NCBI GenBank assembly: GCA_964437185.1
Contig: CAYTFU010000002.1
Coordinates: 41,296-105,295, forward strand
From: an uncultured Candidatus Saccharibacteria bacterium
GTDB taxonomy: Bacteria > Patescibacteriota > Minisyncoccia > Phycocordibacterales > UBA2100
Direction: 5' to 3'
Length of the DNA stretch: 64,000 bases
Part shown: positions 5,661-41,664 of the stretch, piece by piece
Layout: every line of letters begins with the position of its first letter
How positions within the stretch are numbered: the first letter of the stretch is position 1
Notes under the pieces: generated by a model
Told to the model about the DNA's origin: nothing
Database searches by the model: none
The model's input: only the letters and a program-made list of their open reading frames with translations
Position numbers and translations under genes: made by a program

Positions 5661-5706
5661 ATAATGCCCGTTATGTACTGAATGATCGAAGGGAAAAGCA
5701 GCAATA

Positions 5707-6612: not shown

Positions 6613-6613
6613 A

Positions 6614-7159: not shown

Positions 7160-7164
7160 GACCT

Positions 7165-9810: not shown

Positions 9811-11094
9811 CTAGATTCGCAGCAGTTTCTGCAAGGCGGCTTTGTGGAGGTGGGGGCCGATGATAGCGAGGTTAAGTGAGGAAGTTTTGAGGATGTCATT
9901 CGCGACGCGCGCTATGTCGTCGGATGTTACTTTGTCCACGCCCTTCAATATTTCATCAAGAGGGCGTATGCGACCGAGGTTTATGAGCGAAGTGGTGGCA
10001 TTTTGAGCAATTTCATCGCTCGTCTCGAGCGAGAGCGTCATGGTGCCCTTAATGTACGACTTGGCTTTGCGAAGCTCCTCCGCCGAAACTTTCCTCTTTT
10101 TGATTTTTCGGAATTCGGCGAGAATCGTTGAAATGGCTTTCTCCAGTTTGCCGTGCTCCACGCCCGCCTGAACGACGAAATACCCTGTATCGGGGTATTT
10201 GTCTGCCCACGCGTGCACGGAGTAGGCGAGGCCGCGTTTTTCACGAACTTCAAGAAAAAGTCGGCTGCTCATGCCGCCACCGAGAATCGTAGAAAGAACC
10301 GCGAGCGCGTATTCATCCTTGTGTGCGTACGGATACGCGGGCACTCCGACCATTAGTTGCGTCTGATCGGTTTTCTTCTCCTTAATCGCGATGCGTGGCG
10401 CAGTCTGTGTGCCAGAGTACGCGGCAAATGTCGGCGCTGGTGCAGGCTTTAGTTGACCGAATTCCTTCTTTATTTTCGCCAAAACCTTTGCGCTGGAAAA
10501 ATTGCCGGCGATACAGACCACCGTGTTTGCGGATACGTAATTGCGTTTCAGATAATCAGCAAAATCTTTGCGTGAAAAGGATCGAATATTTTCCTTGGGT
10601 CCGAGAATAGTCCGACCAAGCGCGTGATTACCAAAAATAAGAGCGTCGAATACGTTGTCGACCGTGCGCATCGGTATATCTTCATACATGTCGATTTCTT
10701 GGATGATTGCGCCACGCTCTTTCTTGATTTCAGCAGCAGGCAGAGTGGAATTGAGAAAAATGTCACCGATCACATCGAGCGCCGTATCGACGTATTGTCG
10801 ACTCACCTTCGCGAAATAGGCAGTGCGATCTTTGGAGGTAAATGCGTTATATACAGCGCCCACGCCATCAAGCTCTTCGCTTACAGCGCGCGCCGACGGG
10901 CGCTTCTTTGTGCCTTTAAAAAACATGTGCTCAAGAAAGTGTGCGAGGCCGTTTTCGCGCTCGTTTTCGTACCGAGAGCCGGTGCCGCTCATCACGACGA
11001 CGGTGGCGGTAGCGCTATCAGGCATCGGCGCAAGGACTACCCTGAGGCCATTTGGCAACGTGTGAAGGTCGTATTTCACCCCGTTAGAAGCCAT
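9811..11094 (-). CDS. M16 (pitrilysin/insulinase) family zinc peptidase
   Basis: inverzincin HFLEHMFFKGT (HxxEH) motif, ~430 aa. Confidence 0.85.
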   Translation of the reverse strand: MASNGVKYDLHTLPNGLRVVLAPMPDSATATVVVMSGTGSRYENERENGLAHFLEHMFFKGTKKRPSARAVSEELDGVGAVYNAFTSKDRTAYFAKVSRQYVDTALDVIGDIFLNSTLPAAEIKKERGAIIQEIDMYEDIPMRTVDNVFDALIFGNHALGRTILGPKENIRSFSRKDFADYLKRNYVSANTVVCIAGNFSSAKVLAKIKKEFGQLKPAPAPTFAAYSGTQTAPRIAIKEKKTDQTQLMVGVPAYPYAHKDEYALAVLSTILGGGMSSRLFLEVREKRGLAYSVHAWADKYPDTGYFVVQAGVEHGKLEKAISTILAEFRKIKKRKVSAEELRKAKSYIKGTMTLSLETSDEIAQNATTSLINLGRIRPLDEILKGVDKVTSDDIARVANDILKTSSLNLAIIGPHLHKAALQKLLRI

Positions 11095-19981: not shown

Positions 19982-20003
19982 CCGCGAGTGGTCGAAACGC
20001 TAG
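19982..20003 (+). repeat. imperfect duplicate of rpsI 3' end (CCGCGAGTGGTCGAAACGCTAG vs CCGCAGTGGTCGAAGCGCTAG at 19877..19897)
   Basis: 20/22 nt identical incl. stop; encodes EWSKR* vs QWSKR*. Confidence 0.6.
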
Positions 20004-20010
20004 TCGTTCG

Positions 20011-20038
20011 TTCCACTTTTAAGAGCGAGTGATATACT
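20011..20038 (+). promoter_or_regulatory. candidate promoter TTCCAC-16-TATACT for grpE-dnaK-dnaJ
   Basis: hexamers with 16-nt spacer 8 nt upstream of grpE ATG; no CIRCE inverted repeat found. Confidence 0.35.
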
Positions 20039-20046
20039 CGTTGTCT

Positions 20047-20592
20047 ATGAGTGACTCCGATCATGTAACCGACGACGTCGACTTCGAGTCAGAGGACGAT
20101 CTTGGCGCCGTCGCTGCACTAAAGGTTAAGATTCGGGCACTTCATCAATCGCTTGAACAGTGCAGAAAGGAGCGCCAAGAATACCTCGATGGCTGGCAGC
20201 GATCCAAAGCAGACGGCATAAATGCGCGTAAAGAAGCGATAGCCTCTGCGGATCGTTTGGCTACGCGATCTAAGGAGACGCTTATCGAAGACATTATCCC
20301 TACTCTCGACGCTTTCGACATGGCGATGAATAACGAATCCTGGAGCAAAATGGACTCGCAGTGGCGCTCCGGTATTGAATTTATACGCAATCAACTCTCC
20401 GACGCACTCACGCGCAACGGAGTTGAGGCGTTTGGGAAGGTTGGAGATCCTCTCGATCACAATCTGCATGAGGTAGTGAGTGAAATCGCCGATGATGAAG
20501 GGGATTCCCAGGCGATCGTCCGCGTCGTACGCAAAGGATACAAGGCGAGTGATCGAATCTTGCGTCCCGCTCATGTCGTTATTAAAAAATAG
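20047..20592 (+). CDS. grpE: nucleotide exchange factor GrpE
   Basis: coiled-coil N-term then GrpE core (IIPTLDAFDMA, VVRKGYK); start moved to ATG 20047 (MSDSDH). Confidence 0.9.
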   Translation: MSDSDHVTDDVDFESEDDLGAVAALKVKIRALHQSLEQCRKERQEYLDGWQRSKADGINARKEAIASADRLATRSKETLIEDIIPTLDAFDMAMNNESWSKMDSQWRSGIEFIRNQLSDALTRNGVEAFGKVGDPLDHNLHEVVSEIADDEGDSQAIVRVVRKGYKASDRILRPAHVVIKK

Positions 20593-20629
20593 CGCCCGCC
20601 CAACTACCAATTTCTCGCGCAAGCCAGAC

Positions 20630-20657
20630 TTGCACCGAGGCGGGAAAAAAATATAAT
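20630..20657 (+). promoter_or_regulatory. candidate internal promoter TTGCAC-16-TATAAT upstream of dnaK
   Basis: consensus-like hexamers 40 nt upstream of dnaK ATG. Confidence 0.4.
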
Positions 20658-20697
20658 TCGCTTGAAAAGACCAAAGTTATCAAATAATCTAACCACT

Positions 20698-22548
20698 ATG
20701 TCAAAAATACTTGGAATTGACCTCGGTACGACAAATTCCGCTATCGCGATCGTGAGAAGCGGCGAGCCAGAAATACTCGAAAATGCGGAAGGTGCTCGAA
20801 CCACACCATCGGTCGTCGCGGTATCAAAGACGGGCGAGCGCCTTGTGGGCCTTTTGGCAAAGCGCCAGGGCGTCACCAATCCCAAAAACACGGTCTACCA
20901 AATTAAGCGATTCATCGGACACAACTACGACGAAGCCGCAGCGCAGTCCGACAAGGCGGCTGTACCATTTGAGATTCAAAAATCGGCAAACGGTGGCATT
21001 GAGGTAAAGATGGCTGATAAGTGGCACCGACCAGAAGAGATTTCTGCGATGATACTTCAAAAACTGAAGCAGGACGCGGAGGCGCGCATCGGCGAGACCA
21101 TCACCGAGGCCGTCATCACGGTGCCTGCGTACTTCAATGACTCGCAAAGGCAGGCGACCAAAGACGCGGGCAAAATTGCAGGACTCGACGTGAAGCGCAT
21201 CATCAATGAACCAACCGCGGCAGCACTCGCGTACGGTTTCAACAAAAAGAAGAATGAAAAGATCGTCGTGTTTGACTTTGGAGGCGGTACGTTTGATATC
21301 TCGGTCCTTGAGGTAGGCGACGACGTGATCGAGGTACGATCTACCGACGGCGACGCGCACCTCGGCGGCAAGGACATTGATCAGAAGATCATGAACTGGA
21401 TAGCCGATGAGTTTAAGAAGCAATCCGGCGTCGACGTGCGCAACGATTCGCTCGCACGCCAGCGGCTCGATGAGGCGGCGGAAAAGGCCAAAATTGAGCT
21501 TTCAACTGCTCTGGAGACAGAGATCAACATCCCGTTCATCACTTCGACAGACGCAGGCCCGCAACACTTGCTGGTGAAAATGACGCGGGCCAAGCTTGAG
21601 GAACTCACAAGCGAATTTTTGGATCGCGCGATGAATATTACGAAGCGTGCCGTGGCTGCGTCGCCGTTCAAAGTAAGCGACATCAACGAAGTCGTGCTCG
21701 TCGGCGGCCAAACCCGCATGCCGGCAATCCAGAAAGCTGTTGAGACATACTTTGGAAAAAAGCCAAACTTAAGTGTCAATCCAGACGAAGTGGTTGCAAT
21801 CGGTGCTGCGATTCAGGGCGGAATCTTGCAGGGCGACGTGAAGGACGTGCTCTTGCTCGACGTGATTCCACTTTCTCTTGGCATTGAAACAATGGGGGGC
21901 ATTGCGACGAAGCTCATTGAGCGCAATACCACCATTCCGACGTCGCGCTCGCAGACATTTTCAACGGCCTCGGACAATCAGCCGTCGGTCGAGATTCACG
22001 TCGTGCAGGGTGAGCGACCGATGGCGGGAGACAATAAATCGCTTGGTCGCTTTAATCTCGACGGCATTCCACCAGCACCGCGCGGCACTCCGCAGGTCGA
22101 AGTATCGTTCGACATCGACGCCAACGGCATACTTTCTGTGAAGGCAAAAGATAAGTCTTCTGGCAAGGAGCAGTCCATTCGTATAGAAGCCACTTCGGGC
22201 CTTTCGGACGCTGAAGTGGAAAAGATGCGCAAGGATGCCGATCTCAATGCGGAGGCGGATAAAAAGAAACACGATGTAGTGGAGGCACAAAATGCAGCAG
22301 ATCAGGTAATGTACGCCGCCGAAAAAGCGCTCAAAGAACACGGCGACAAGGTTGGTGACGACATAAAGAAAAATGTGCAAGAAAAAATAGATGCACTGAA
22401 GGCGGCTCGCGCCGGCACCGATCTCGAGGCGATCAAATCGGCCTCAGACGCGCTCTCGACAGCTATGAGTGCAATCGGAAATGCAATGGCAAAGGCAAAC
22501 CAGACGCCGCCACCGAGCGAGCCAACGCCGCCCGAAGCAGACAAGTAA
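20698..22548 (+). CDS. dnaK: chaperone DnaK (Hsp70)
   Basis: [28 protein letters not shown] motifs; start at ATG 20698. Confidence 0.95.
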
Positions 22549-22625
22549 TCTGGTGTCAATCCAAAGAGCGATCGCACATGCGATCGCTCTTTGCTTTACA
22601 CGTTCTAATCACTATAATGAAAGCG

Positions 22626-23687
22626 ATGAAAGATTATTACGAAATTCTCGGAGTCGCAAAAGGCGCGAGTGAGGAAGAAATCAAGGTTGCATTTCGCAAG
22701 CTTGCGCACAAGTACCACCCCGACAAAAAAGGCGGCAACGAGGCCAAATTCAAAGAGGTGAGCGAGGCGTATTCTGTACTTTCTGATAAAAAGCGACGAG
22801 CGGAGTACGACACCTACGGGAGCGCGCATGCGGGAGGCGGCCACCAAGGTTTCTCCGGATTCGACTTTTCAAATTTCCAAGGCTTCGGACAGGGCGGGGG
22901 TGTCGAATTCGATCTCGGCGATATATTCGGCGAAATGTTTGGCGGGGGCGGCGGCTCGCGAGTACGTCGTGGCCGAGACATTTCTATCGACCTTGAGTTG
23001 TCCTTTCGCGAATCTATCTTCGGAACAGATCGCCGCGTACTTATAGGTAAGGTCGGCGCCTGCGACACCTGCGCCGGAAGCGGCGCGCGCAAGGGCTCGA
23101 AACTTATCACGTGCACCTCGTGCAATGGGAAGGGCGAAATACGCGAGACGAGGAACTCCTTCTTCGGCACATTCGCATCGTCGCGATCCTGTCCAAAATG
23201 CCACGGAAGAGGGCAAATACCGGAAGCGTCGTGCGACGCATGCAGGGGAGAGGGCGTGCGCAAACGACAGGAGGAAGTGCATATCGTCGTACCAGCTGGT
23301 GTCTCTGACGGCGAAATGATACGGATGCCCGCACGGGGCGAGGCGCTCGCGGGCGGCACGGCGGGAGACCTCTACGTAAAGCTTCACGTTAAGACTGATC
23401 CCAAGTTTTCCCGAGAAGGCAACAATCTCGCTACCATACTCTCAATCAAGCTTTCCGACGCGCTCTTAGGCGGTGAATTCCGAGTGACGTCGCTTGATGG
23501 AGAAGAGGCGATCAGTATTGAAAGTGGCGTGGTCCACGGCGATATTCTGCGCATTCGCGGCAAGGGCGTACCGCACGGGCGCGGCACTCGCGGCGATCTG
23601 CTCGTAAAGGTCAACATCCAGTTCCCAAAAAAGCTCTCTCGCCAAGCGCGAGAATTGGTAGAAAAATTACGCACAGAGGGTGTGTAG
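22626..23687 (+). CDS. dnaJ: chaperone DnaJ
   Basis: J-domain KDYYEILGV...HPDK, G/F region, four CxxCxGxG repeats. Confidence 0.9.
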
Positions 23688-23727
23688 CAATCAATTGCCG
23701 CTTGCAAAAGCGTAGTAGAATTACCGC

Positions 23728-24216
23728 ATGGACCTCAATGCGTGGTCAAGCGTTCTTTCGTCGTGGCCGCACGACTGGATTCTTATCGGCGGCATCGCAA
23801 TTTTCGTCTCGCTCGACGCGATGCGCTCTGGCTCTGCCCGCGCGGCGTCGATCGCGCTAGCCTTGCCTGCAACTCTTTTTGCCTTCAACGCAATTCCTCA
23901 GGCTTATTTTTTGGGGCCATTGCTCGCTGAATACACCGCACCAATTGTCCACATTGTTTTATTTGTCGTGTTCTTCGCACTCATTTTTTTCACTACATAT
24001 CGTACCGTCTTTGGCGCATCGGATGGGGGGCGGGTCTTACAATCGCTCCTCATCGGCCTCGCGGCCACGGCCGCTATTGTGCTCGTATGGATTCAGGTGC
24101 CAGCTCTTGAATACGCATGGCATTTTGGCGACCAAGTGCAGGCCGTCTTCGCCCCTGCGCTTAGGCTGTGGTGGTATGTCGCAATTTTCACTTCGCTTGC
24201 GTTTGCGCGGAGTTAA
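23728..24216 (+). CDS. hypothetical polytopic membrane protein
   Basis: 4-5 predicted TM helices; C-terminal 19 codons duplicated at 25779..25834. Confidence 0.6.
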   Translation: MDLNAWSSVLSSWPHDWILIGGIAIFVSLDAMRSGSARAASIALALPATLFAFNAIPQAYFLGPLLAEYTAPIVHIVLFVVFFALIFFTTYRTVFGASDGGRVLQSLLIGLAATAAIVLVWIQVPALEYAWHFGDQVQAVFAPALRLWWYVAIFTSLAFARS

Positions 24217-24222
24217 AAGGTA

Positions 24223-24251
24223 TTGGTAAATCCGCGCGAATGTGGCATAAT
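24223..24251 (+). promoter_or_regulatory. promoter TTGGTA-17-(TGg)CATAAT for mntA-hepT
   Basis: extended -10 TGGCATAAT, 8 nt upstream of mntA GTG/ATG. Confidence 0.5.
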
Positions 24252-24259
24252 GCGATCGT

Positions 24260-24667
24260 ATGGTAGCCAATTTTACACTCACAGAAACTCAACGATCGGC
24301 TATTGAAAAGCTTGGCGTTGTCCTTTTGTATCTACATGGCTCGGTGGCTGCTGGCACCGCGCGCGCAAACAGTGATGTAGACATTGCTGTTTTATTTGAA
24401 ACTACGCCGCGGGACTCGATTAGCGCGACGACCGCGGTCACGGAGGCTCTACGCGGATTGGTACCGCAACGTGAGATGGATATCGCCATACTCAATGAAG
24501 CAAATCCGCTGCTGAAACAAATAGTCGCCTCGACCGGCAATCTCCTGTACGCGCGTACAACTGACGACGCATTGAAATTTGAGCTGCGCGCCATGCACGA
24601 TTACGAATATTCTCGCCATGTCGTCCGTCTGGGGCAGGAACTTATTTTGCGCAACGTGAGCGTATGA
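24260..24667 (+). CDS. mntA: minimal nucleotidyltransferase antitoxin (MntA-like)
   Basis: GSVAAGTARANSDVDIAV = GSxxxGxxxxxSDxD NTase motif; 4-nt overlap with hepT. Confidence 0.8.
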   Translation: MVANFTLTETQRSAIEKLGVVLLYLHGSVAAGTARANSDVDIAVLFETTPRDSISATTAVTEALRGLVPQREMDIAILNEANPLLKQIVASTGNLLYARTTDDALKFELRAMHDYEYSRHVVRLGQELILRNVSV

Positions 24668-25095
24668 CCGAATTTTCTCGAGAATTACTCATGGGCAAAT
24701 TGGTGCAGTGCAGCGAGGCACTCACCGATCTGCAGCGATACCGCGAGGTCGGAACTTTGGATTACCTGCGCGACCACCAGGACATATATTACGCTGTATG
24801 TTATCGGTTTATCGGTGGCATCGAAGCCTTATTTGATGCTGGCCAAATAATTCTGGCGAGCCACGGACAGCATGCAGCCGGTGACGGCGACATACCCGTA
24901 CTTCTTGGGCGAAGGAAAATTATATCTGACGAGCTGGCTAGTGCATTCACCAATATGTACGGTTTTCGCAATCGGCTGGTGCACGCCTACGGCACGCTCG
25001 ATGATTCCAAGGTGGCCGAGTACCTTCAGAGGCATCTTGTAGATATCGAGGAGCTTATCAGTGTATTTCGAGACACGGTGACAAGCTCGGAGTGA
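24664..25095 (+). CDS. hepT: HEPN/DUF86 toxin (HepT-like RNase)
   Basis: RNRLVHAY (Rx4-6H HEPN motif) near C-terminus; classic MNT-HEPN pair. Confidence 0.8.
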   Translation: MTEFSRELLMGKLVQCSEALTDLQRYREVGTLDYLRDHQDIYYAVCYRFIGGIEALFDAGQIILASHGQHAAGDGDIPVLLGRRKIISDELASAFTNMYGFRNRLVHAYGTLDDSKVAEYLQRHLVDIEELISVFRDTVTSSE

Positions 25096-25128
25096 AGGCG
25101 AATGAGGATCAGATAGTAAATAGTCATT

Positions 25129-25608
25129 ATGGGGGAGATCGAGATACAGTCCTTGGTGGCTGAGGTCGATCGGGAGGCGGTAGAGTTTTGCCGCGAGATT
25201 TATTCTGAAATGGGATGGCCTGAACATGCCCTAGGTTCAAGCGTCGCGGCACTATTCAGTGAACCTGGTGATGCTTTTGTGACCATCAAGCAGGCCGGAA
25301 AAATTATCGGTACCGGTGGTTTTCTACGACTCTCAAAAGAAGAAGCGGTATTAAAAAGGTTTTACCTCGCAAAACATGTACGCGGTAGTGATCTCGCGCC
25401 GCGATTATTTGCCGATCTCGTAGATAGGGCGCGAGTCATTGGGTACTCCGTGCTCCTTGTGGATGTTTCTTCAACCAACGTACGTGCGATACGATTCTAT
25501 GAGAAGGAGGGTATGAAGGAGTTTTTTGGTGTCTCACCCCACCCGCGCTGGGAAGGATCCTCACCCGAAAGGCAGAAAACTGACCGATATTTTCGCTTAA
25601 AACTCTAA
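25129..25608 (+). CDS. GNAT family N-acetyltransferase
   Basis: acetyl-CoA binding-like region RLFADLVDRARVIGYSVLLVDV...RFYEKEG. Confidence 0.7.
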   Translation: MGEIEIQSLVAEVDREAVEFCREIYSEMGWPEHALGSSVAALFSEPGDAFVTIKQAGKIIGTGGFLRLSKEEAVLKRFYLAKHVRGSDLAPRLFADLVDRARVIGYSVLLVDVSSTNVRAIRFYEKEGMKEFFGVSPHPRWEGSSPERQKTDRYFRLKL

Positions 25609-25856
25609 TTCAACCTGAGGTGATCCATGCTTCATTTTCACATTGTCGCCCGCAAGAGAGCGGAGTAGTTCCGTCAGAGAAACAGAGAATTTACCACAGC
25701 CCTCTCTTGCCTTATCGACAGCAAGGTTTAGAGTACACCCTATGGGTGCGTTTTCATGGAGACTTCTCGAGGACGCACTAAGACGGTGGTGGTATGTCGC
25801 AATCTTCACTTCGCTTGCGTTTGCAAGAAGCTGAGAAAATCAGCGCCTCCATACCT

Positions 25857-25884
25857 TTGCACTGGCTGATTTACGTGTTATAAT
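25857..25884 (+). promoter_or_regulatory. promoter TTGCAC-16-TATAAT upstream of EamA transporter gene
   Basis: consensus hexamers; -10 ends 6 nt before ATG (short leader). Confidence 0.45.
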
Positions 25885-25890
25885 CTGAAT

Positions 25891-26787
25891 ATGCATGCTG
25901 AGCTTATCGTCGCAGTACTCGCAGGAATGGGCGGCATGTTCGGATGGGGATTTTCAGAATTTGGAGCAAAAAAATCCGTTGATGACATAGGAGCAATTTC
26001 CAGCCTCGTGTGGGCGCATGTCTTTGGCACGGTGATTCTTTTTGCGCTGCTTATAGCCCGGTCCTCCTTCACGCATGAATCCGTTTATTTCCCGACAGAT
26101 TCCGGTGTATGGCTGGGTCTTATTTTTTTTGGAGCTCTCCAAGCTGCCGTATATTATTTTGCTTATAAAGGTTTCGGAGAGGGTGAGGTTTCCATTTTGA
26201 GTCCTATTTTTGCATCGTTTGCCGGTCTCGTCGCACTGCTATCTGTCTTGGTATTTGGGGAGATTTTGAGTGTAGGTATGGTGCCCGCTTTAGTAATTAT
26301 TTTTGGGGGCGTGATACTGATGAATCTTGATCTAGGAAGATTCCGAACGGCGGGTGTTCGTATCAAAGCTGTCGCCGGATTGAAAGCAATCCTAGTAGCT
26401 ACGGCACTTGCGACGATTTGGACCTTGGGGTGGAACACATTTTCGGGAACTCAGGACTGGATAGTTTACACGACCTTCATGTTTGTATTTATGACACTTG
26501 CAGCATTTGGTATGGCACGGTTGGCAAAAGTTAATTTAATGGAGGTTAAACCACGAGCATGGAAATTCTTATGGCTCATAGCTGTGGGAGAGGTTGTTGC
26601 GTATTTGGCAATAACGTTGGGTTATGCAAATACCTCGTATACCAGTGTCGTTGCAATATTGAGCGGTGCCTCTTCTTTACCGACCATACTGCTCGCTCGT
26701 ATCTTTCTAAAGGAACAAATGACGAAGACGCAAGCGGTTAGCTGCGTCGTCATCATCGCAGGTATCGTCATCTTGGCTGTATCATAA
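25891..26787 (+). CDS. EamA/DMT superfamily transporter
   Basis: 10 predicted TM helices, two EamA-like halves. Confidence 0.75.
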   Translation: MHAELIVAVLAGMGGMFGWGFSEFGAKKSVDDIGAISSLVWAHVFGTVILFALLIARSSFTHESVYFPTDSGVWLGLIFFGALQAAVYYFAYKGFGEGEVSILSPIFASFAGLVALLSVLVFGEILSVGMVPALVIIFGGVILMNLDLGRFRTAGVRIKAVAGLKAILVATALATIWTLGWNTFSGTQDWIVYTTFMFVFMTLAAFGMARLAKVNLMEVKPRAWKFLWLIAVGEVVAYLAITLGYANTSYTSVVAILSGASSLPTILLARIFLKEQMTKTQAVSCVVIIAGIVILAVS

Positions 26788-26789
26788 AT

Positions 26790-28247
26790 ATGCAGCCAAA
26801 ACACCCAAAATCCCATCTTACGCACGCGCTTAATCACGTGACGCATAAAGCGATTCGCTGGTGCACCCCCTCGATTGATCTGACATTCGCTCAGGTTAAA
26901 AACCCCTATGCGAGCGACACGTCGACATCTTTCGAATCGCTGGGGTATCCTTCTGACCCATCCGGCGTTTTTAAAAAAGTGTACGAGCATGCTGCTAGCG
27001 CATATGGGGCGCAGCACACTCTGTTCTCCGTGAATGGCACTACCGGTAGCAATTTCATGGTTTTGCGAGCTTTAAGCAAACAAATTCCAAATCTTCGGAT
27101 GCTCGCCCAAAGAAATGTGCATAGATCAATTGTCGCGGCATGTGAGGATTATGGAATAAATCTTTTCTTTCTGGAACCCAATATCGATCAAACTCACCAA
27201 CTTTTTCTTCCAAACACGGTAGAGCAAATATGTGAGGGGATTGAGCGGATCAAGCCGCAAGTGCTGCTTCTTACTAATCCTACCTACGAGGGACTTTGTC
27301 TCGACTTGAAACACGTCATTGCGACTGTGCGGGAAAAATCCCAAGAAATGATAATGTACGTCGATGAGGCGTGGGGCGCTCACTTGCATTTTTCCGATAA
27401 GCTGCCCATCTCTGCTATGGATGCCGGAGCGGACATTTGTGTTCAAAGTACTCATAAGCAAGGCGGGTCTCTTCAGCAGTCAGGCATGATTCATTGGAGA
27501 GAAGGGAGAATTAACAACGACCTGCTCGTCGAGTCCTATCGAAGCCTAGGAACCAGTAGTCCGTCCTACTTGCTTCTTGCGTCTTTGGATGCCGCGAGGG
27601 AAACTATGCAAAAAAAGGGCAAGAAAAAGATAGACCACATACTGACAACCGCAAAGCATTTGTCCGACGAGACAAGTAAAATCTCCGGTTTGCATGTGAT
27701 CTCAGTAGACGACCTGACGACAAACTATTCATCAGTGCGCGATAGAGATAATTCAAAAGTAATTGTTGACGTTACCGGTACGGGGTTTAACGGATACGAT
27801 GTGGCAAATATTTTGGACAGTAAGTATAAAATTTTAGTTGAATCGTACAACCTAAAAACGATTCTTTTTCTTGTCCCATTTAGGGCAACGGCCGCTGATG
27901 TCCATACGACGGTAGCGGCCCTTAAAGAAATAGTTCGTAAACCTAAAAAGAACGGCGTCGCGATGGAATACAATTTAATAATCCCGACAAATATTCCTAA
28001 AATTTTGGACTTACATGAAATGACAAAACTGCAGGTCGATCAAATTGAGCGCGTGCCGTTGGACAGGGCTGTCGGACGAATAGCGGCAGAGCATATTACT
28101 CCATTTCCACCAGGTATTCCAATCACTATTAAGGGCGAGGAATTGACGAGGGAAATTATCGAATATTATATTGCATTAAAGGCGTACCCCAATGTCCACA
28201 TAGCGGCGCGCGACAAATCAGTAGAATATGTATGGGTTGTAAAGTAG
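26790..28247 (+). CDS. PLP-dependent Orn/Lys/Arg decarboxylase family protein
   Basis: FSVNGTTGSN and VQSTHKQGGSLQQSGMIH (PLP-lysine STHK motif) of OKR_DC_1 major domain. Confidence 0.75.
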   Translation: MQPKHPKSHLTHALNHVTHKAIRWCTPSIDLTFAQVKNPYASDTSTSFESLGYPSDPSGVFKKVYEHAASAYGAQHTLFSVNGTTGSNFMVLRALSKQIPNLRMLAQRNVHRSIVAACEDYGINLFFLEPNIDQTHQLFLPNTVEQICEGIERIKPQVLLLTNPTYEGLCLDLKHVIATVREKSQEMIMYVDEAWGAHLHFSDKLPISAMDAGADICVQSTHKQGGSLQQSGMIHWREGRINNDLLVESYRSLGTSSPSYLLLASLDAARETMQKKGKKKIDHILTTAKHLSDETSKISGLHVISVDDLTTNYSSVRDRDNSKVIVDVTGTGFNGYDVANILDSKYKILVESYNLKTILFLVPFRATAADVHTTVAALKEIVRKPKKNGVAMEYNLIIPTNIPKILDLHEMTKLQVDQIERVPLDRAVGRIAAEHITPFPPGIPITIKGEELTREIIEYYIALKAYPNVHIAARDKSVEYVWVVK

Positions 28248-28274
28248 CCTTACGTTTTGTTGTATAATGATTGC

Positions 28275-29792
28275 ATGAGGAAATTCAAAACGGTCTTCGA
28301 GCAGTTGCCCACGCCCGTTAGCATCGCCGTTTTGCTCGTCATAATTGTGATTGTTATTACCACCTCGTGGACGCTATACAATCACACGGTCGACATTCTC
28401 ACGCAGAATTTAAGAGACCGTTTGCAGACTATCTCTGTTACCCAAGCGGCCAATGTCGATGCCTCGGATATTGAGGCACTTCAGGTAGAGGAGGATTGGA
28501 AAAAACCAGAGTGGGAACATCTGGTAAGTAAATTGCACAAAGCAAAGTACAGTAATGGTCAAATTGTTTTTATATACATTTTCCGAAAAACCAAGGATGA
28601 CCCGACCAAAATGGAATTCGTTGCAGACGCTGATTCAATTGACCCATATGCAAACATTAACAATAATCCAACCGGAGAAATAGTTTCCGCATCAACATGC
28701 CCTTTGTGCGTTGACTCCAACAGAGATGGAAAAATCGACAGAGAACATGCTGATAGGCTGCAGTGGCCCGGCATGCTGTTCCCCGAAATAGAAGGTGTGC
28801 CGGAAGCTTTTGCGGCATATAACGGCCCGATTACTGTGCCGGATATTTACACGGACGAATACGGCTCAGTTCTTACGGGCTTTGCTCCCATCACAAACGC
28901 AAGCGGGACTGTCGTAGCGATTCTGGGAACCGACATAAAAGCCGACGACTTTCTCACAATCACAAGGCAGACGCTGTATCCGTTTCTTGCGTTTATCGCC
29001 GCGCTGACGCTGATTATCGCCGTTTTGGCGGCATCGCTCATTTATATTTGGTCTCGACGTGCAAACATGTTAGCAAGACTTTCGCGTAGCCTAGAAATAG
29101 CTAATGCCCAGCAGGAAGGCCTTTTGCACTTTATTAGTCATGAGATCAAGGGCTACCTTACCAACAGCGAAGCAGGGTTTGCTTCCATCGCGGAGGGGGA
29201 TTACGGAGAGGTTACCCCTCAATTGAAAACCATGGCCACAAGCGCCCTCGCGAATGTCCGCAGGGGAGTGAGCACGGTGGTCGACATACTTCGTGCGGCG
29301 GATATGAAGCGAGGCACGGTCTCGTACAGAAAAGACCCTGTCGACGTGCGAGCGGTCGTCGAGAATGTTATCAACACACTTCGACCAAACGTCACAGAAA
29401 AAGGCCTAACTCTCGAGACCAACATCGCAGATGGGTCGTACACCACCTCGGGCGATGAGGAGAAACTTCGCAACAACGTCCTCCGCAACCTCATCGACAA
29501 CGCCATCCGATACACGCCGACCGGAACGATTACCATCAGCCTTTCCAACGCTGGCGGTACAATACGTTTTTCGGTAAAGGACAGCGGTGTCGGAATTACT
29601 GAGGAGGATAAGAAGCGATTATTTACTGAGGGTGGGCACGGCAAAGAATCCATAAAAACCAACGTCCATTCCACCGGCTACGGCCTCTTTATCGCAAAGC
29701 AAGTAGTAGACGCCCACGGCGGCAAAATCTGGGCCGAATCGGAAGGGGAGGGCAAAGGCTCCACGTTTGTTGTAGAGCTCCCCACTGCATAG
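28275..29792 (+). CDS. sensor histidine kinase with extracytoplasmic Cache-like domain (no adjacent response regulator)
   Basis: TM-periplasmic domain-TM, H-box HEIKGYLT, N/G boxes DNAIRYTP, DSGVGI, GYGLFIAKQVV. Confidence 0.85.
   Translation: MRKFKTVFEQLPTPVSIAVLLVIIVIVITTSWTLYNHTVDILTQNLRDRLQTISVTQAANVDASDIEALQVEEDWKKPEWEHLVSKLHKAKYSNGQIVFIYIFRKTKDDPTKMEFVADADSIDPYANINNNPTGEIVSASTCPLCVDSNRDGKIDREHADRLQWPGMLFPEIEGVPEAFAAYNGPITVPDIYTDEYGSVLTGFAPITNASGTVVAILGTDIKADDFLTITRQTLYPFLAFIAALTLIIAVLAASLIYIWSRRANMLARLSRSLEIANAQQEGLLHFISHEIKGYLTNSEAGFASIAEGDYGEVTPQLKTMATSALANVRRGVSTVVDILRAADMKRGTVSYRKDPVDVRAVVENVINTLRPNVTEKGLTLETNIADGSYTTSGDEEKLRNNVLRNLIDNAIRYTPTGTITISLSNAGGTIRFSVKDSGVGITEEDKKRLFTEGGHGKESIKTNVHSTGYGLFIAKQVVDAHGGKIWAESEGEGKGSTFVVELPTA
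29722..29792 (+). repeat. HK 3'-end copy 1 (direct repeat with 30095..30165)
   Basis: first 44 nt identical to copy 2, remainder differs mostly at codon third positions. Confidence 0.7.
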
Positions 29793-29806: not shown

Positions 29807-30055
29807 ATGTTGACGAACAAAGATATAGACAAGATGATAAAGGTTTTCGCTACTAAGGAAGACATCCGGAGCGTCACCGATAGACTCGACAGGCTGGAAT
29901 CCTTGGTTCGCGGTCTTCTAACTGGGGTGGACAAACTCGCGACGAGTGTCGACAAATTGCTTTTGGAGTATGCGGCAGTCAGCGAACAACTTACGCGCCA
30001 CGAGAGGTGGATCAAACAAATCGCAAAAAAGTCTGGCGTGATGCTCGCGGACTAG
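29807..30055 (+). CDS. small coiled-coil protein, family copy P1 (82 aa)
   Basis: paralogous to 60378..60653 (shared EYAAV..QL.RHE.WIK.IAKKSGV) and weakly to 53139..53399. Confidence 0.7.
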   Translation: MLTNKDIDKMIKVFATKEDIRSVTDRLDRLESLVRGLLTGVDKLATSVDKLLLEYAAVSEQLTRHERWIKQIAKKSGVMLAD

Positions 30056-30094: not shown

Positions 30095-30165
30095 ACTCGC
30101 AAGTGCAAAATCTGGGCCGAATCGGAAGGGGAGGGCAAAGGCTCCACCTTCATTGTCGAACTTCC
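30095..30165 (+). repeat. HK 3'-end copy 2 (encodes KIWAESEGEGKGSTFIVELPAA*)
   Basis: in-frame pseudo-C-terminus of histidine kinase with conservative changes V>I, T>A and TAG>TAA. Confidence 0.7.
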
Positions 30166-30207
30166 CGCAGCTTAAAATATCGACGATTTTCTGCTATCAT
30201 AGGTCGC

Positions 30208-38928: not shown

Positions 38929-40272
38929 ATGAGTATCGTTAAGGTGCGTTTCCCACCGAGCCCGACGGGCTATTGCCATGTCGGCACCGCTCGAATGGCG
39001 ATTCTTAATTATTTATTTGCGCGAAAACACGGCGGGAGCATTGTATTTCGCAGCGAGGACACCGACAAGGAGCGCAGCCGCGCGGAGTACGAAGACGACA
39101 TTCGAGAAAGTCTTAGCTGGCTCGGACTTTCGTGGGACGAGTTTTATCGCCAGTCTGAGCGCACCCACGTATACACTACCGCGCTTCTACAACTCATCCG
39201 CGAGGGGAAAGCATACGTCTCCGAGGAGGAGAGTAAAAAAGAACCTGGCGTACGCGTGCGTCCGGTACGACTCAAAAACCCGGGCACCGTTATCACGTTT
39301 GCAGATGAGATCCGCGGTGAGATTACGTTTGATACGGCAGAACTCAAAGATTTTGTCATTGCGCGCTCGATCAACGATCCGCTGTATCACCTTGCAGTGG
39401 TCGTCGACGATCACGATATGGGGATCACGCACGTGATTCGCGGCGAAGATCACATCTCAAACACACCTCGGCAAATTCTGATTCAGGAGGCGCTTGGATA
39501 TTCGCGGCCCGTGTACGCGCACTACCCGCTGCACCTTTCAGCAGACAGAGCGAAGCTCTCTAAACGCACGGGCGATGTGGCCGTCCGATCGTATCGAGAA
39601 AAAGGATACCTGTCCGGAGCACTACTCAATTACCTCGCGACACTTGGCTGGACGCCACCATCGGGTAGGGAGATATTGAGTCTTGATGATATGGTCAGCG
39701 AATTTGAACTCAAAGACGTGCACAAAAGCGGGGCAATTTTCGATCTCGAAAAGTTGCGCTGGTACAACAGACACTACTTGCACGAACTTTCACCCGGAGA
39801 ATTTGCCGCAGAAGCGTCGATTATCCTCTCCGAAGAAATGCACACTCGCGGTATTACGGTCACAGACGACCTTGTACTAAAATTATGGCCGATTATACGC
39901 GAGCGAATAGGCGTGTGGGAGGATTTGCGTGAGGCGATTCGCGATGCCGAGTTTGATTTCTTTTTCAAAGACCCGGTATTGGATTCCGCCCGTATATCGC
40001 AAAAAGGAGTCGAGCCAAACGTGACGCTGAAGCACCTCGCCGCTTGTGCGGAGATGCTGACCTCTGTCACCGAGGAGGATTTTACCGAGTCACACATCAA
40101 GGATCGGCTGTGGCCCTACGCAACATCAGAGGGTCGCGGGGCTGTTTTATGGCCGCTACGATACGCGCTCTCGGGCCTCGAAAAATCACCGGACCCCTTT
40201 GTAATCCTCGGGATCATAGGGAAAGAGACGGCACTGAGGCGTATTGAGGCAGCTCGATCGCAGCTTGTATGA
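38929..40272 (+). CDS. gltX: glutamyl-tRNA synthetase
   Basis: RFPPSPTGYCHVGTAR (HIGH-class), KLSKR; start could also be 38917. Confidence 0.9.
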   Translation: MSIVKVRFPPSPTGYCHVGTARMAILNYLFARKHGGSIVFRSEDTDKERSRAEYEDDIRESLSWLGLSWDEFYRQSERTHVYTTALLQLIREGKAYVSEEESKKEPGVRVRPVRLKNPGTVITFADEIRGEITFDTAELKDFVIARSINDPLYHLAVVVDDHDMGITHVIRGEDHISNTPRQILIQEALGYSRPVYAHYPLHLSADRAKLSKRTGDVAVRSYREKGYLSGALLNYLATLGWTPPSGREILSLDDMVSEFELKDVHKSGAIFDLEKLRWYNRHYLHELSPGEFAAEASIILSEEMHTRGITVTDDLVLKLWPIIRERIGVWEDLREAIRDAEFDFFFKDPVLDSARISQKGVEPNVTLKHLAACAEMLTSVTEEDFTESHIKDRLWPYATSEGRGAVLWPLRYALSGLEKSPDPFVILGIIGKETALRRIEAARSQLV

Positions 40273-41564
40273 ATAGAGGACTCGCCGTTATCTCGGTACT
40301 CTGCGTACTGCTGTGCTTACCGTCCAATTCCTTCGCCCAAAATGCGCCTGCCTCAGAGGAGCGCATCAACTCCTTACAATCGCAGATTGACACCCACAAA
40401 TCTGAGATCGAAAAAATTGACCGGGAAATTGCGCAATATCAACAGCAGCTTGACGCTGTCGGGACCAAAAAGAAAACACTTCAAAACACACTTTCGCAGC
40501 TGGATCTTCAGATAAAAAAAGCGACTGCGTCGATAAACGTCACAAAAAATAAAATTAGTGCAACGCAGCTCGAAATTCTCCAGCTTGAGAAGGGAATTGC
40601 AGGCAAAGAAGTTTCTATCGAAACGGGGAACCAGGGCCTGCGAGAGTCCCTGCGTCGACTCAATGAGATTGGAACCAATCCTCTTGCAGTGCAAGTGCTT
40701 TCCTCAATCGACATCTCCGAAGCGTGGGAAGACGCGGACGCTATTCAAGAACTCCAAGTGGCAGTGCGCGATCAAATCGCACGACTCGCTTCGGAGAAAC
40801 AATCACTCACGGAGACAAAAAACCAGACCGAGGCGAAGCGCGCGCAATTGGTGAAGCAAAAGGATACTCTGCTTGCGCAGCAAGGCTCGCTCACGGCTCA
40901 AAAAAAGGCGCAGAACGAGCTTCTCGTTCAGACCAAATCACAGGAATCCACCTACCAATCAATTTTGAAACAAAAACAGGCGGCAAAAGCCACGTTTGAA
41001 GCAGCGCTTGGTGATCTTAAAATCCAGTTCCAGAGAGCTATTAGGCCCTCGGAAATTTTGGCCGCCGGAAAGGGGATATTGCGCTGGCCGCTCGACAACG
41101 TGCGCATCACACAGCAATTTGGAAACACCGCCTTCGCGGCTTCTGGTGCATATAATGGCAAGGGACACAACGGCATCGACCTCGCCGCTCCCGTCGGCAC
41201 ACCGCTGAGAGCGGCTCTTAATGGCGTAGTTTTGGGGACGGGCAACACGGATAGCATAAAGGGCTGCTACTCATTTGGACGGTGGGTGATGATTAAGCAC
41301 CCCAATGGGATCAACACCATGTACTCGCACCTCTCCCAAATCAACGTTGCAGAGGGCCAAAACGTCGATACAGGGCACATAATCGGCTACAGCGGGGAAA
41401 CGGGCTATGCCACAGGCCCACACCTTCACTTCGGCGTGTACGTCAGCTCGGCAACGGCAATCATTCGCCTCGGCGCCGCGAGCAATTCGACCACCCCGTG
41501 CTCAAACGCCGTCATGCCCGTCGCACCCCTATCGGGATACTTAAATCCGATGAATTATCTCTAG
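40269..41564 (+). CDS. M23 family metallopeptidase with N-terminal coiled coil (EnvC-like)
   Basis: signal peptide, long coiled coil, C-terminal LytM domain GHNGIDLAAP...PHLHFGVY. Confidence 0.8.
   Translation: MNRGLAVISVLCVLLCLPSNSFAQNAPASEERINSLQSQIDTHKSEIEKIDREIAQYQQQLDAVGTKKKTLQNTLSQLDLQIKKATASINVTKNKISATQLEILQLEKGIAGKEVSIETGNQGLRESLRRLNEIGTNPLAVQVLSSIDISEAWEDADAIQELQVAVRDQIARLASEKQSLTETKNQTEAKRAQLVKQKDTLLAQQGSLTAQKKAQNELLVQTKSQESTYQSILKQKQAAKATFEAALGDLKIQFQRAIRPSEILAAGKGILRWPLDNVRITQQFGNTAFAASGAYNGKGHNGIDLAAPVGTPLRAALNGVVLGTGNTDSIKGCYSFGRWVMIKHPNGINTMYSHLSQINVAEGQNVDTGHIIGYSGETGYATGPHLHFGVYVSSATAIIRLGAASNSTTPCSNAVMPVAPLSGYLNPMNYL
41520..41564 (+). repeat. M23 gene 3'-end copy 1
   Basis: 45 nt; direct repeat with 41620..41664. 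Confidence 0.75.
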
Positions 41565-41620: not shown

Positions 41621-41664
41621 TCGCACCCCTATCGGGATATCTAAATCCGATGAACTATCTCTAG
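41620..41664 (+). repeat. M23 gene 3'-end copy 2 (encodes identical VAPLSGYLNPMNYL*)
   Basis: 3 differences from copy 1, all synonymous third-position changes. Confidence 0.75.

Follow-up and report, generated by a model that had tools for sequence, protein, structure and literature searches.

Because the genomes of CPR bacteria (Patescibacteria) are tiny and contain few classical mobile elements, the way in which they gain genes is poorly understood. The 64-kb stretch of DNA analysed here, which we call the window, brings this problem down to a single gene end: a Kaiserbacteria (CPR) membrane-protein gene carries a 1.6-kb block, with a toxin-antitoxin pair and an acetyltransferase, within its last 60 nt. 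How could such a block enter at this position, and by what kind of recombination?

A duplicated gene end and what it brackets

The membrane-protein gene, Memb (23728..24216, + strand), encodes 162 aa and was defined through homologues, alignments and synteny. Its 30 homologues are nearly all 162 aa long, the nearest one being 68% identical, and no Pfam or NCBIfam family matched it. Upstream lies dnaJ (22578..23687, + strand), the last gene of a conserved grpE-dnaK-dnaJ block that was followed by tblastn synteny in 32 species genomes; Pfam DnaJ domains were found on the called dnaJ gene in L001. Memb comes directly after dnaJ in all the fetched lineages except L043/L044. On the other side there is an EamA-family transporter gene (25891..26787, + strand; assigned with Pfam), which in L009 and L010 lies directly 3' of Memb and thereby represents the empty site.

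A direct-repeat search revealed a 50-nt repeat with 90% identity (24157-24206 versus 25775-25824), and the codon-by-codon reading extended it to 60 nt, up to the stop codons of both copies (24157-24216 versus 25775-25834). The initial annotation had proposed an insertion at the 3' end of Memb between coding-derived direct repeats of about 55 nt; the insertion and the coding origin of the repeats are borne out, with tails of Memb on both sides, and the length comes to 60 nt. The translations are ALRLWWYVAIFTSLAFARS for the left copy and ALRRWWYVAIFTSLAFARS for the right one, each followed by a stop and each corresponding to the last 19 residues plus stop of the 162-aa membrane protein. By repeat search and codon reading, the left repeat (24157..24216, + strand) is the working 3' tail of Memb, with its last 19 codons and TAA, and the right one (25775..25834, + strand) is an orphan, displaced 3' tail of 19 codons and TGA. 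The latter had also been claimed to be an orphan fragment and not a downstream paralogue, in agreement with what we found: there is no Memb similarity 5' of 25775, and no relative locus has a nearby second copy. The orphan stop is located 56 nt before the EamA start, and the Memb-EamA gap measures 72-73 nt in L009 and L010. Between the orphan tail and EamA there is a promoter-like TTTGCA-17-(TG)TATAAT (25856..25884, + strand), a consensus match only.

The two copies differ at 10 nt spread over 9 codons. Eight of these codons are synonymous or exchange one stop for another (TAA to TGA), including the double change CGG to AGA, and the remaining one replaces L with R; the "eight of nine" synonymous differences of the initial annotation are correct when counted as codons. 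Random substitutions seldom gave equally few amino acid changes with the stop kept (P = 2.5e-5 in 200,000 trials). With 10 nucleotide differences and only one amino acid change, both tails appear to have a past as functional gene ends that predates their joining, and the near-absence of amino acid change would mean, as read from the sequence, that they derive from two lineages. An orphan decaying in place would gain non-synonymous changes; the coding constraint on both tails counts in favour of the insertion proposed below. In composition, each tail resembles its own flank: the GC3 is 0.58 in the left tail and 0.60 in the neighbouring gene, and 0.47 in the orphan and 0.44 in EamA. The same pattern is seen between the species-level relatives L045 and L005, in which the last 22 residues of Memb are identical and nearly every codon is synonymously changed. 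The repeat of the window is a mosaic, in which 8 of 8 edge codons differ versus 1 of the 10 core codons capable of variation; the core comprises 38 nt with one difference between saturated edges, and the longest identical run is 20 nt. We also considered that the orphan might give rise to a small membrane peptide, since an ATG lies in frame 5' of it in the window (25742) and in L052. This was discarded as a general explanation, since the orphan tail of a kinase gene, described below, shows the same synonymous bias and has no in-frame start codon.

The repeats bracket an MntA-HepT pair, a GNAT gene and a spacer of 166 nt, and the gene assignments, already made in the initial annotation, were upheld by Pfam and, for MntA and HepT, by NCBIfam. 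The antitoxin gene mntA (24260..24667, + strand) encodes a nucleotidyltransferase matching Pfam Polbeta (1e-15) and NTP_transf_2 (9.4e-9) and the NCBIfam equivalog MntA_antitoxin (78.6 bits, cutoff 60), and its translation contains the GSx10DxD motif (GS-VAAGTARANS-DVD). The gene hepT (24664..25095, + strand) encodes a predicted HEPN RNase toxin matching Pfam HepT-like (6.5e-22) and the NCBIfam equivalog HepT_toxin (69.9 bits, cutoff 60); its Rx4HxY motif, RNRLVHAY, includes the tyrosine modified by MntA and is invariant among 34 homologues. Both genes are adjacent and co-oriented, with the antitoxin first and the mntA stop overlapping the hepT start (ATGA, 24664-24667), and the antitoxin-then-toxin order is the same in all the related MntA-HepT loci. 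The cargo is accordingly annotated as a putative type VII toxin-antitoxin pair, intact by its domains and motifs. In this system, HepT is an RNase toxin that the adenylyltransferase MntA inactivates by AMPylation (PMC7641770). No relatives of the module were found in viral contigs.

The acetyltransferase gene (25129..25608, + strand; Pfam Acetyltransf_1, 4.9e-11) belongs to a GNAT family of 12 members, all with 62-79% identity, whose named records and genomic surroundings indicate Kaiserbacteria. Where the context was fetched, in four lineages, the GNAT gene is located within a few kb of DnaJ and Memb, together with other partners (X155/208, p317). This distribution suggests that the GNAT gene is a resident of a variable Kaiserbacteria neighbourhood that was carried along, rather than a part of the toxin-antitoxin module. 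The single mntA-hepT-GNAT cassette that had been proposed therefore stands for the MntA-HepT pair and not for GNAT, since the Memb tails of L052 enclose MntA-HepT alone. A decay of GNAT through the change of a conserved glycine (RGSDLA for RGSGLA) was considered and rejected, as the position varies in two other family members too.

The non-coding spacer (25609..25774, + strand), estimated earlier at about 170 nt, was analysed by alignment with relatives. Its first ~20 nt (TTCAACCTGAGGTGATCC, a small hairpin) are kept 3' of the GNAT gene in relatives, and the rest has no clear homologue. An Rfam scan of 23600-26000 gave no RNA family, and a 9-bp stem of the spacer (GCAAGAGAG/CTCTCTTGC) matches no known family. 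With regard to the promoter announced 5' of mntA, TTGGTA-17-(TG)CATAAT (24223..24251, + strand) does match the consensus, and both of its hexamers are conserved in L052 (TTGGTA ... TGTGGTATAGT), but promoter-like matches in the region are no commoner than in shuffles, so it is referred to here as promoter-like.

Relatives and further scars

The initial annotation had proposed to look for the same cassette and repeat elsewhere, and in L052 an MntA-HepT pair (77% aa and 74% nt identity) is indeed found between two Memb tails, although without GNAT. These tails (...LLAAFIGLSFARS) are those of the lineage of L052 itself and, despite being tails of the same gene, are unrelated to the tail of the window at the nucleotide level. 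The orphan of L052 directly follows hepT, and at least 30 nt are identical between its two tails. Duplicated Memb tails were not observed in 32 other species genomes, with one marginal match in L014, and the repeat core had no exact match when JGI metagenomes were scanned. The look-ups of the exact Memb and EamA proteins for a sister strain with the empty site gave insert-carrying contigs only.

A direct before-and-after pair is provided by L011 and L043/L044, strains that are 97-99% identical. In L043, a 2.3-kb block, X155-GNAT-p317, enters 30 nt before the dnaJ stop, with Memb lying downstream of GNAT-p317. The replacement dnaJ tail, of donor type and on the left, differs at 12 of 33 nt with only two amino acid changes, its stop being TAG instead of TAA, and the orphan GAAGGTCTGTAA stays behind. 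The right junction is abrupt; it shares with the empty site GAAAAAT and then GAAGGTCTGTAA, with scrambled bases in between. In addition, 19 nt of the empty site are present in neither junction, which argues that there is no conserved crossover core. The SNPs between L011 and L043 are distributed in dense patches, and L001 is separated from the window by 7 SNPs, which cluster in dnaK; these strains recombine.

The same scar occurs twice more in the window, a point missed by the initial annotation; both were delimited by repeat and codon comparison. In the second scar, the working tail (29721..29792, + strand) of a histidine-kinase gene (28257-29792) and an orphan kinase tail (30104..30175, + strand) enclose p82, an 82-aa gene recognised by its homologues (29807..30055, + strand). 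The first 43 nt of the kinase tails are identical and the last 28 nt contain 10 differences, most of which are synonymous, the stop being TAA instead of TAG; the orphan stop is 32 nt before the TrpRS start at 30208. Homologues of p82 are present at the same kinase/TrpRS site in L035 and L050. For L050, whose tails differ by one codon, the tail comparison is based on protein-level similarity. In the third scar, the working tail (41521..41564, + strand) of an M23-peptidase gene (40269-41564) and its orphan tail (41621..41664, + strand) show 3 differences, all synonymous, and the 56 nt between them contain a hairpin (CCCCGTG...CACGGGG). A simple tandem duplication was rejected for this scar, the sequences 3' of the two copies being unrelated. 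The synonymous bias in the three scars has P values of 2.5e-5, 1.4e-3 and 0.016, respectively, and in all three the repeat ends at the stop codon.

Outside the window, the scar is widespread around related MntA-HepT pairs, which had likewise been overlooked. In this subfamily, 10 of the 15 assessable loci are bracketed by repeats of 27-108 nt; the background in control loci is 8 repeat pairs in 332 kb. In at least nine of the 10 bracketed loci, the stop codon of the reading frame upstream (EF-G, kinase and others) lies within the first repeat. Over all the scars, repeat length ranges from 12 to 187 nt, and the ends of the cassettes are not fixed: the distances from the repeat to the mntA start and to the hepT stop vary between sites. 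L059, L063 and L065 present two-cassette arrays with three copies of the same tail, as repeats of 30-130 nt with ~90% identity. The third EF-G tail of L065 has 50 nt differences but keeps its stop in register, and its synonymous codons outnumber the non-synonymous ones by 26 to 7 (P < 5e-5), the pattern expected of a foreign allele, as which we interpret it. About 9-20 nt of junction sequence outside the tail are common to copies 2 and 3 of L063, which indicates that copy 3 was templated from copy 2. Among the cargoes found in this repeat-flanked state, the MntA-HepT pair is the most frequent. Another point missed before is that, judged by their sequences, the repeats appear always to be the tail of the local gene, with no recombination-site sequence of their own.

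Possible origins of the insertion

We consider it reasonably probable that the block entered the last 60 nt of Memb by a homology-anchored, integrase-free insertion from related DNA, with displacement of the resident tail. The incoming DNA, from a related Kaiserbacteria genome, would carry its own version of the last 20 codons of Memb, and with this gene end brought along Memb stays whole. The resident tail would be displaced downstream, still near its original distance from EamA, and either flank may be the donor. The join would be made by the general recombination of the host, anchored on the homology of the 3' end of the gene and with no site-specific recombinase acting on a dedicated site. 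It could be of the Campbell type, in which a circularised fragment enters through a single crossover, or it could combine a homologous with an illegitimate end (homology-facilitated illegitimate recombination, HFIR). When a circular molecule integrates by a single crossover, part of the homologous locus becomes duplicated (PMC3240628), and orphaned 3' regions made by displacement are known at T6SS and Rhs loci (PMC5361080). Furthermore, Patescibacteria are naturally competent and have kept recombination genes (PMC12455944, PMC10633639). On the other hand, the mosaic repeat calls for crossing-over or gene conversion within its own length, or else for another event; homology arms of 27-108 nt would be inefficient for RecA-type recombination; and HFIR in the laboratory usually produces insertion plus deletion, not duplication (PMC3240628), which also counts against this insertion.

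The restored gene end, the orphan downstream and the near-identical 38-nt core between diverged arms also fit a site-specific integrative element that survives as a remnant or satellite and whose integrase was lost or is encoded elsewhere (CIME-like). The arrays of L059, L063 and L065 resemble tandem accretion at an att site, and the integrase search covered 64 kb of genome, which is a further point in favour of such an element. Within this scope, the absence of a recombinase between the repeats, claimed earlier, was confirmed by the Pfam scan and extends to ~30 other reading frames of the window; the gene tables of the related loci contain no tyrosine or serine recombinase, and an intI integrase was found neither there nor among the tested reading frames of the window. 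That no integrase turned up in or near the bracketed cassettes inspected, or in those reading frames, weighs against an integrative element. No sequence is common to the repeats of different sites (Memb, EF-G, kinase and other tails), not even where the gene is the same (the window versus L052), and the repeats are coding tails that are also conserved in genomes without any cassette. Neither do they form hairpins beyond chance when the two Memb repeats and the kinase repeats, each on both strands, are folded as DNA and compared with shuffles (z = 0.1 to 0.5 for Memb, -1.1 and 0.4 for the kinase). As the variable repeat length, the unfixed cassette ends and the L043 versus L011 junctions point in the same direction, we regard this origin as unlikely.

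A duplication made in place at insertion, by staggered breaks (a long target-site duplication) or by a replication template switch that copies foreign DNA and re-primes upstream, would have to be followed by divergence of the two copies or by the overwriting of one of them through homologous recombination from relatives. The templated copy 3 of L063 and the identical stretches of the kinase scar (the first 43 nt) and L052 (at least 30 nt) are in line with this, and patchy imports from relatives could later give either copy a synonymous-only allelic difference. Nevertheless, simple divergence predicts mostly non-synonymous changes, frameshifts and loss of the orphan stop, and synonymous changes dominate; a repeat that ends at the stop would be a coincidence for a staggered cut and is expected if the insert starts after a donor gene; and each scar would require one extra overwriting step, so that we find this explanation rather unlikely. 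It seems distinctly improbable that the orphan is the remainder of a second resident Memb copy, as would result if an ancestor like L043 (GNAT-p317-Memb-EamA) gained Memb-MntA-HepT upstream and then deleted p317 and most of the old gene. At least two events would be needed where one suffices, no relative within the fetched loci has two Memb copies, and the kinase, M23, dnaJ and EF-G scars and the GNAT-less L052 would be left unexplained, even though Memb does lie downstream of GNAT-p317 in L043 and low GC3 is common to GNAT, the orphan tail and EamA. The spacer, too, speaks for such a remainder: its 166 nt approach the GNAT-p317 intergenic length (142-152 nt), it shares the first ~20 nt of that intergenic region and it weakly resembles its end. 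Finally, a metagenome-assembly artefact joining two strain variants is hardly conceivable. The sources are metagenome-assembled contigs and three assemblies break at 24639-24647; however, the arrangement is 100% identical across assemblers and samples (ENA k141 megahit, Logan k31 and NCBI MAG), independent assemblies whose agreement rules against an artefact, and the longest identical stretch of the repeat, 20 nt, is below any k-mer used.

Flanked as it is by direct repeats, the insert could be excised if these recombined with each other. A cell that lost the toxin-antitoxin pair would be poisoned, and this would account for the persistence of repeat-flanked inserts mainly around MntA-HepT. 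The insert is probably stabilised by this addiction, the toxicity of HepT being a prediction. A broader view, which we put forward as possible but doubtful, is that MntA-HepT modules and some neighbouring small genes constitute a class of integrase-free mobile cassettes in Kaiserbacteria, with the tail copy as a homology "address label" and the pair killing the cells that lose it. A tail-cassette-tail fragment would then insert beside the same gene in any related genome, whatever lies downstream; ordinary host recombination would suffice, the toxin-antitoxin would kill cells after repeat-mediated deletion, and successive insertions would build integron-like arrays without an integrase. The scars would let us read how genes were gained, through recombination with relatives that is anchored on conserved gene ends, and orphan gene tails could serve as markers for dating and polarising horizontal transfers in metagenome-assembled genomes. 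If the cassette plus tail were a self-spreading unit, it would represent a minimal kind of mobile element, one that can do without any enzyme encoded by itself. Toxin-antitoxin pairs would then have a concrete selfish function, that of guarding a repeat-flanked insert from deletion, and the unit would offer a design for gene insertion into naturally competent CPR bacteria.

Comparison with known systems

The arrangement resembles the C-terminal displacement of Rhs and of the T6SS effector-immunity arrays of Vibrio cholerae (PMC5361080), where a conserved upstream homology anchor receives a new 3' end with cargo, the resident 3' end is orphaned downstream, repeated events build arrays and no integrase takes part. 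HFIR has been put forward there as the mechanism. In Rhs and T6SS, however, the displaced ends are different toxins, the cargo is the matching immunity gene and the diversity of the ends is the point, whereas here the genes are of housekeeping type (membrane protein, kinase, EF-G, DnaJ) and their two ends code for one and the same peptide, no more than 12-190 nt are displaced and an unrelated toxin-antitoxin pair is carried. None of the displaced units is a polymorphic toxin C-terminus with its immunity gene, the host genes being those for the membrane protein, kinase, EF-G, DnaJ and M23 peptidase. With HFIR and single-crossover integration (PMC3240628), the scars would have in common the one-sided homology, the foreign DNA beside a conserved anchor and the partial duplication of the locus; the allelic, synonymous differences between the tails are consistent with a donor allele on one side. 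Laboratory HFIR gives mostly insertion plus deletion with 3-10-bp microhomology, while only duplications, with very short arms, are seen here; deletions into the tight downstream intergenic regions are possibly selected against. The minimal mobile elements of Neisseria (PMC3787668, PMC1797815) also occupy a variable slot between conserved genes, hold differing whole-gene cassettes without mobility genes of their own and move by transformation and homologous recombination, the slots here being dnaJ/Memb...kinase/TrpRS. They have two different conserved flanks and no duplicated gene end, in contrast to the tail of one gene on both sides of the cassettes described here, which would make the cassette independent of a conserved gene on the downstream side.

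Several classes of elements show a similar arrangement at gene ends. Prophages and ICE/IME (such as phage 21 and e14 in icd) integrate in the 3' ends of genes and supply a replacement end, and cis-mobilisable elements (CIME) keep the att sites and lack the integrase. As in our scars, the element-borne end differs mostly at synonymous sites and the orphan lies at the far junction, and integrase-less elements are known. Nevertheless, prophages, ICE and IME depend on a dedicated integrase and on a defined att core, whereas in our scars no integrase and no common core were found and the target differs by locus. The arrays of L059, L063 and L065 recall integron arrays and integrase-less attC clusters, with small cassettes in tandem that often carry toxin-antitoxin or acetyltransferase genes. 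Unlike integrons, their repeats are the coding tail of the upstream gene and not attC hairpins, no intI was seen and the cassette has its own promoter-like site. The MntA-HepT module itself, with two overlapping genes, both motifs and both NCBIfam equivalog cut-offs passed, is no different from the known type VII module; what is new is how and where it is inserted.

Insertion of new genes in the tail of a conserved membrane-protein gene

The window represents a Candidatus Kaiserbacteria-like (CPR/Patescibacteria) genome. Several genes for haem synthesis follow one another at 4659-8825 (ALAD, porphobilinogen deaminase, a chlorite-dismutase-like, HemQ-type, protein and uroporphyrinogen decarboxylase); CPR genomes normally lack haem biosynthesis, and such a run is unusual among them.

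A grpE-dnaK-dnaJ block followed by the gene of a 162-aa membrane protein (Memb, 23728-24216) is an arrangement kept across 32 species genomes, many of which carry Kaiserbacteria or Parcubacteria titles. Memb has 30 homologues, nearly all of 162 aa, and no family match was obtained in Pfam or NCBIfam searches. The initial annotation had proposed that a mntA-hepT-GNAT cassette is inserted in the 3' end of this gene, flanked by coding-derived direct repeats. The repeats were confirmed, as the last 60 nt of Memb (24157-24216) recur at 25775-25834 as an orphan tail. Between both copies are located a promoter-like site (24223-24251), mntA (24260-24667), hepT (24664-25095), whose start overlaps the mntA stop, a GNAT gene (25129-25608) and a 166-nt spacer without genes, in which an Rfam search found no known RNA. 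The spacer holds an inverted repeat (25652-25710) with a perfect 9-bp stem (GCAAGAGAG / CTCTCTTGC), also without an Rfam match. MntA (78.6 bits, with a GSx10DxD motif) and HepT (69.9 bits, with a Rx4HxY motif) both exceed the NCBIfam equivalog cutoff of 60, and judged by sequence the module appears to be an ordinary type VII toxin-antitoxin pair. An assembly artefact was ruled out because identical contigs were recovered from different assemblers and samples. It should be noted that three independent contigs (L003, L004 and L049; two Logan, one megahit) end or start at 24639-24647, near the mntA/hepT junction. This points to a k-mer there that is shared with a strain variant or another copy.

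In two contigs fetched for comparison (L009 and L010), a gene for an EamA transporter lies directly 3' of Memb, with a gap of 72-73 nt. In the window, 56 nt separate the orphan stop from the start of EamA (25891-26787). Since this spacing resembles that of L009 and L010, the orphan tail and EamA have probably kept the original contiguous order, and the DNA gained later would sit within the last 60 nt of Memb. Third-position GC agrees with this arrangement, although the samples are small: GC3 is 0.58 in the left tail and 0.60 in its adjoining gene, and 0.47 in the orphan tail and 0.44 in EamA. On a larger scale, the genes of the region 25100-28900 (those for GNAT, EamA and an Orn/Lys/Arg decarboxylase, and the 5' portion of a kinase gene) present a GC of 0.41-0.49 and a GC3 of 0.44-0.48, against a higher GC3 of 0.55-0.63 in the surroundings; this stretch, with the orphan tail in it, may have been imported.

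Tail differences and the genes of the insert

Differences at 10 nt, spread over 9 codons, distinguish the two Memb tails, and the encoded residue changes in just one of these codons (L to R). One codon carries two substitutions and remains synonymous (CGG to AGA), and the stop codon itself is TAA in one copy and TGA in the other. In a Monte Carlo analysis, random substitution gave so few amino-acid changes in 2.5e-5 of the trials. Furthermore, the repeat is a mosaic, in which all 8 edge codons differ and the 38-nt core contains one difference. When the same tail was compared between two other contigs (L045 and L005), the protein was identical and nearly every codon was synonymously changed; therefore, species-level alleles of this tail show just the pattern found at the edges of the window repeat. 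Given the synonymous-dominated differences and the likeness to these alleles, we conclude that both tails were probably once real gene ends in different lineages, joined by recombination. By the same sequence comparison, the orphan does not appear to be a decaying duplicate.

As to the genes carried by the insert, GNAT has only 12 homologues (62-79% identity), for which named records and neighbouring genes indicate Kaiserbacteria. In 4/4 lineages with fetched context, dnaJ and Memb are no more than a few kb away from it, and the partner genes X155/208 and p317 usually accompany it. Conservation covers the gene itself and ~20 nt past its stop, nothing else. Homologues of MntA-HepT (52-77% identity) are present in many contexts, for example directly 3' of a histidine kinase (L030, L050). 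The closest pair (77% aa and 74% nt identity) was found in L052, a 1,053-nt Logan contig, where its own lineage's Memb tail (ending in LLAAFIGLSFARS) and the same promoter-like hexamers lie upstream; the tail appears again (AVFAPAYRFWLLLAAFIGLSF) 47 nt past hepT, with GNAT absent between. At the nucleotide level, this tail is unrelated to that of the window. The same 30-mer is present at both ends of L052 (1-30 and 1024-1053), and each 1,023-nt period holds exactly one Memb tail, promoter-like site, mntA and hepT. In a k = 31 assembly, such ends are expected from a chromosomal direct repeat with 30 or more identical nt as well as from an excised circle of 1,023 bp, and the contig could be either. 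Thus, the proposed insertion at the Memb 3' end with tail repeats stands, but L052, without GNAT, argues against a single mntA-hepT-GNAT unit, and the three genes are better regarded as not forming one cassette.

Scars elsewhere in the window and in other genomes

We call scar a gene tail in two copies, one working and one displaced, that bracket an insert. A scan of the window, in which each long reading frame was represented by its final 16 residues and stop and these were searched for re-occurrence downstream, gave two cases besides Memb; the control on the reversed sequence gave 0-1 matches. The first concerns a histidine kinase, whose working tail (29721-29792) and orphan tail (30104-30175) enclose an 82-aa gene (29807-30055). 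The first 43 nt of these tails are identical and the last 28 nt contain 10 differences, most of them synonymous (P = 1.4e-3). The orphan stop is 32 nt before the start of TrpRS, which is directly 3' of the kinase in many relatives, and homologues of the 82-aa gene (L035, L050) and MntA-HepT (L030, L050) also occupy this kinase/TrpRS site. In the second case, the tails of an M23 peptidase (41521-41564 and 41621-41664) present 3 differences, 3/3 synonymous (P = 0.016), and are separated by just 56 nt, including a terminator-like hairpin (CCCCGTG...CACGGGG).

The state before and after a scar is best illustrated by L011 and L043/L044, strains that are 97-99% identical. In L043 (7228-9530, corresponding to 5924-5944 of L011), a 2.3-kb block X155-GNAT-p317 interrupts dnaJ 30 nt ahead of its stop and supplies a replacement dnaJ tail (12 residues, compared with RELIEKLRQEGL); 12/33 nt differ, TAA being changed to TAG, and a 12-nt orphan remnant of dnaJ (GAAGGTCTGTAA) persists in L043. 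The SNPs between L011 and L043 form dense clusters, a hallmark of recombination with diverged relatives. Between the window and contig L001 (~9.3 kb compared, window 20000-29332), 7/7 differences fall inside 460 nt of dnaK (21864-22320), a recombination patch like those of L011/L043. Another type of insert was noticed in two species, where an IS200-like Y1 (HUH) transposase gene (Pfam Y1_Tnp, 1.4e-10) lies between grpE and dnaK (L015, 2041-2840; L024, 1814-2630) with flanking direct repeats of 27-31 nt.

In contig L041, a direct repeat of 187 nt with 89% identity (6935-7121 and 10748-10934) covers the end of a 344-aa gene together with the next 43 nt. The 3.8 kb between its copies contain a PIN toxin-antitoxin pair, a gene of 77 aa and an X208-GNAT-p317 block in inverted orientation. 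A metagenome scan with the HepT alignment yielded 15 assessable distinct MntA-HepT loci, of which 10 lie between direct repeats 27-108 nt long. At no fewer than nine of the ten, the first repeat contains the stop of the preceding reading frame; these frames are EF-G (two loci), a kinase, Memb (two loci) and others. Control loci totalling 332 kb contained 8 repeat pairs. At three loci, one gene tail occurs three times and separates two cassettes, one being MntA-HepT: L059 (548-633, 1880-1975 and 2841-2930), L063 (547-574, 1458-1492 and 2183-2217) and L065 (2340-2487, 3317-3454 and 4452-4599). Copies 2 and 3 of L063 also share junction sequence outside the tail, and copy 2 of L065 is interrupted by ~25 nt. 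The third EF-G tail of L065 differs at 50/135 nt (26 synonymous and 7 non-synonymous codons), with its stop in register. The layout at these three loci is like that of an integron, but without an integrase.

Possible mechanisms and known systems

The repeats of different sites had no common sequence or structure, their lengths vary between 12 and 187 nt, the cassettes have no fixed ends, and no recombinase was found in the cassette or in the window reading frames scanned. For these reasons, a dedicated site-specific system is unlikely. A recombinase encoded elsewhere and acting in trans is an explanation to which we assign little probability. The two remaining alternatives concern the source of the second Memb tail: a duplication in place with later allelic overwriting is improbable in our judgement, though slightly less so than the recombinase in trans, and a second resident Memb copy, later deleted, seems the least probable of the three.

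The data fit an insertion anchored on homology in the end of a conserved gene. A circularised fragment could join by a single crossover, which duplicates part of the homologous locus (PMC3240628). Another option is a join with one homologous and one illegitimate end, a mechanism put forward to explain the orphaned 3' regions of T6SS and Rhs loci (PMC5361080). From an existing tail-cassette-tail arrangement, a linear fragment may enter a related genome through a pair of ordinary crossovers, both within the one tail resident there, which would give mosaic copies as in the window. Natural competence and retained recombination genes have been described in Patescibacteria (PMC12455944, PMC10633639). 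In genomes whose intergenic regions measure 30-70 nt, selection may permit duplications and not deletions. Addiction may underlie the association with MntA-HepT: an insert between repeats is prone to deletion, and such inserts would persist together with their repeats because losing the toxin-antitoxin pair is presumably harmful.

Insertions of this class are seen here as a repeated occurrence in a CPR lineage. Displacement and homology-facilitated illegitimate recombination (HFIR)-type events are of a known kind, and T6SS and Rhs loci share the orphaned 3' regions; the insertions appear to be a novel form of such events, in which tails of housekeeping genes are duplicated.
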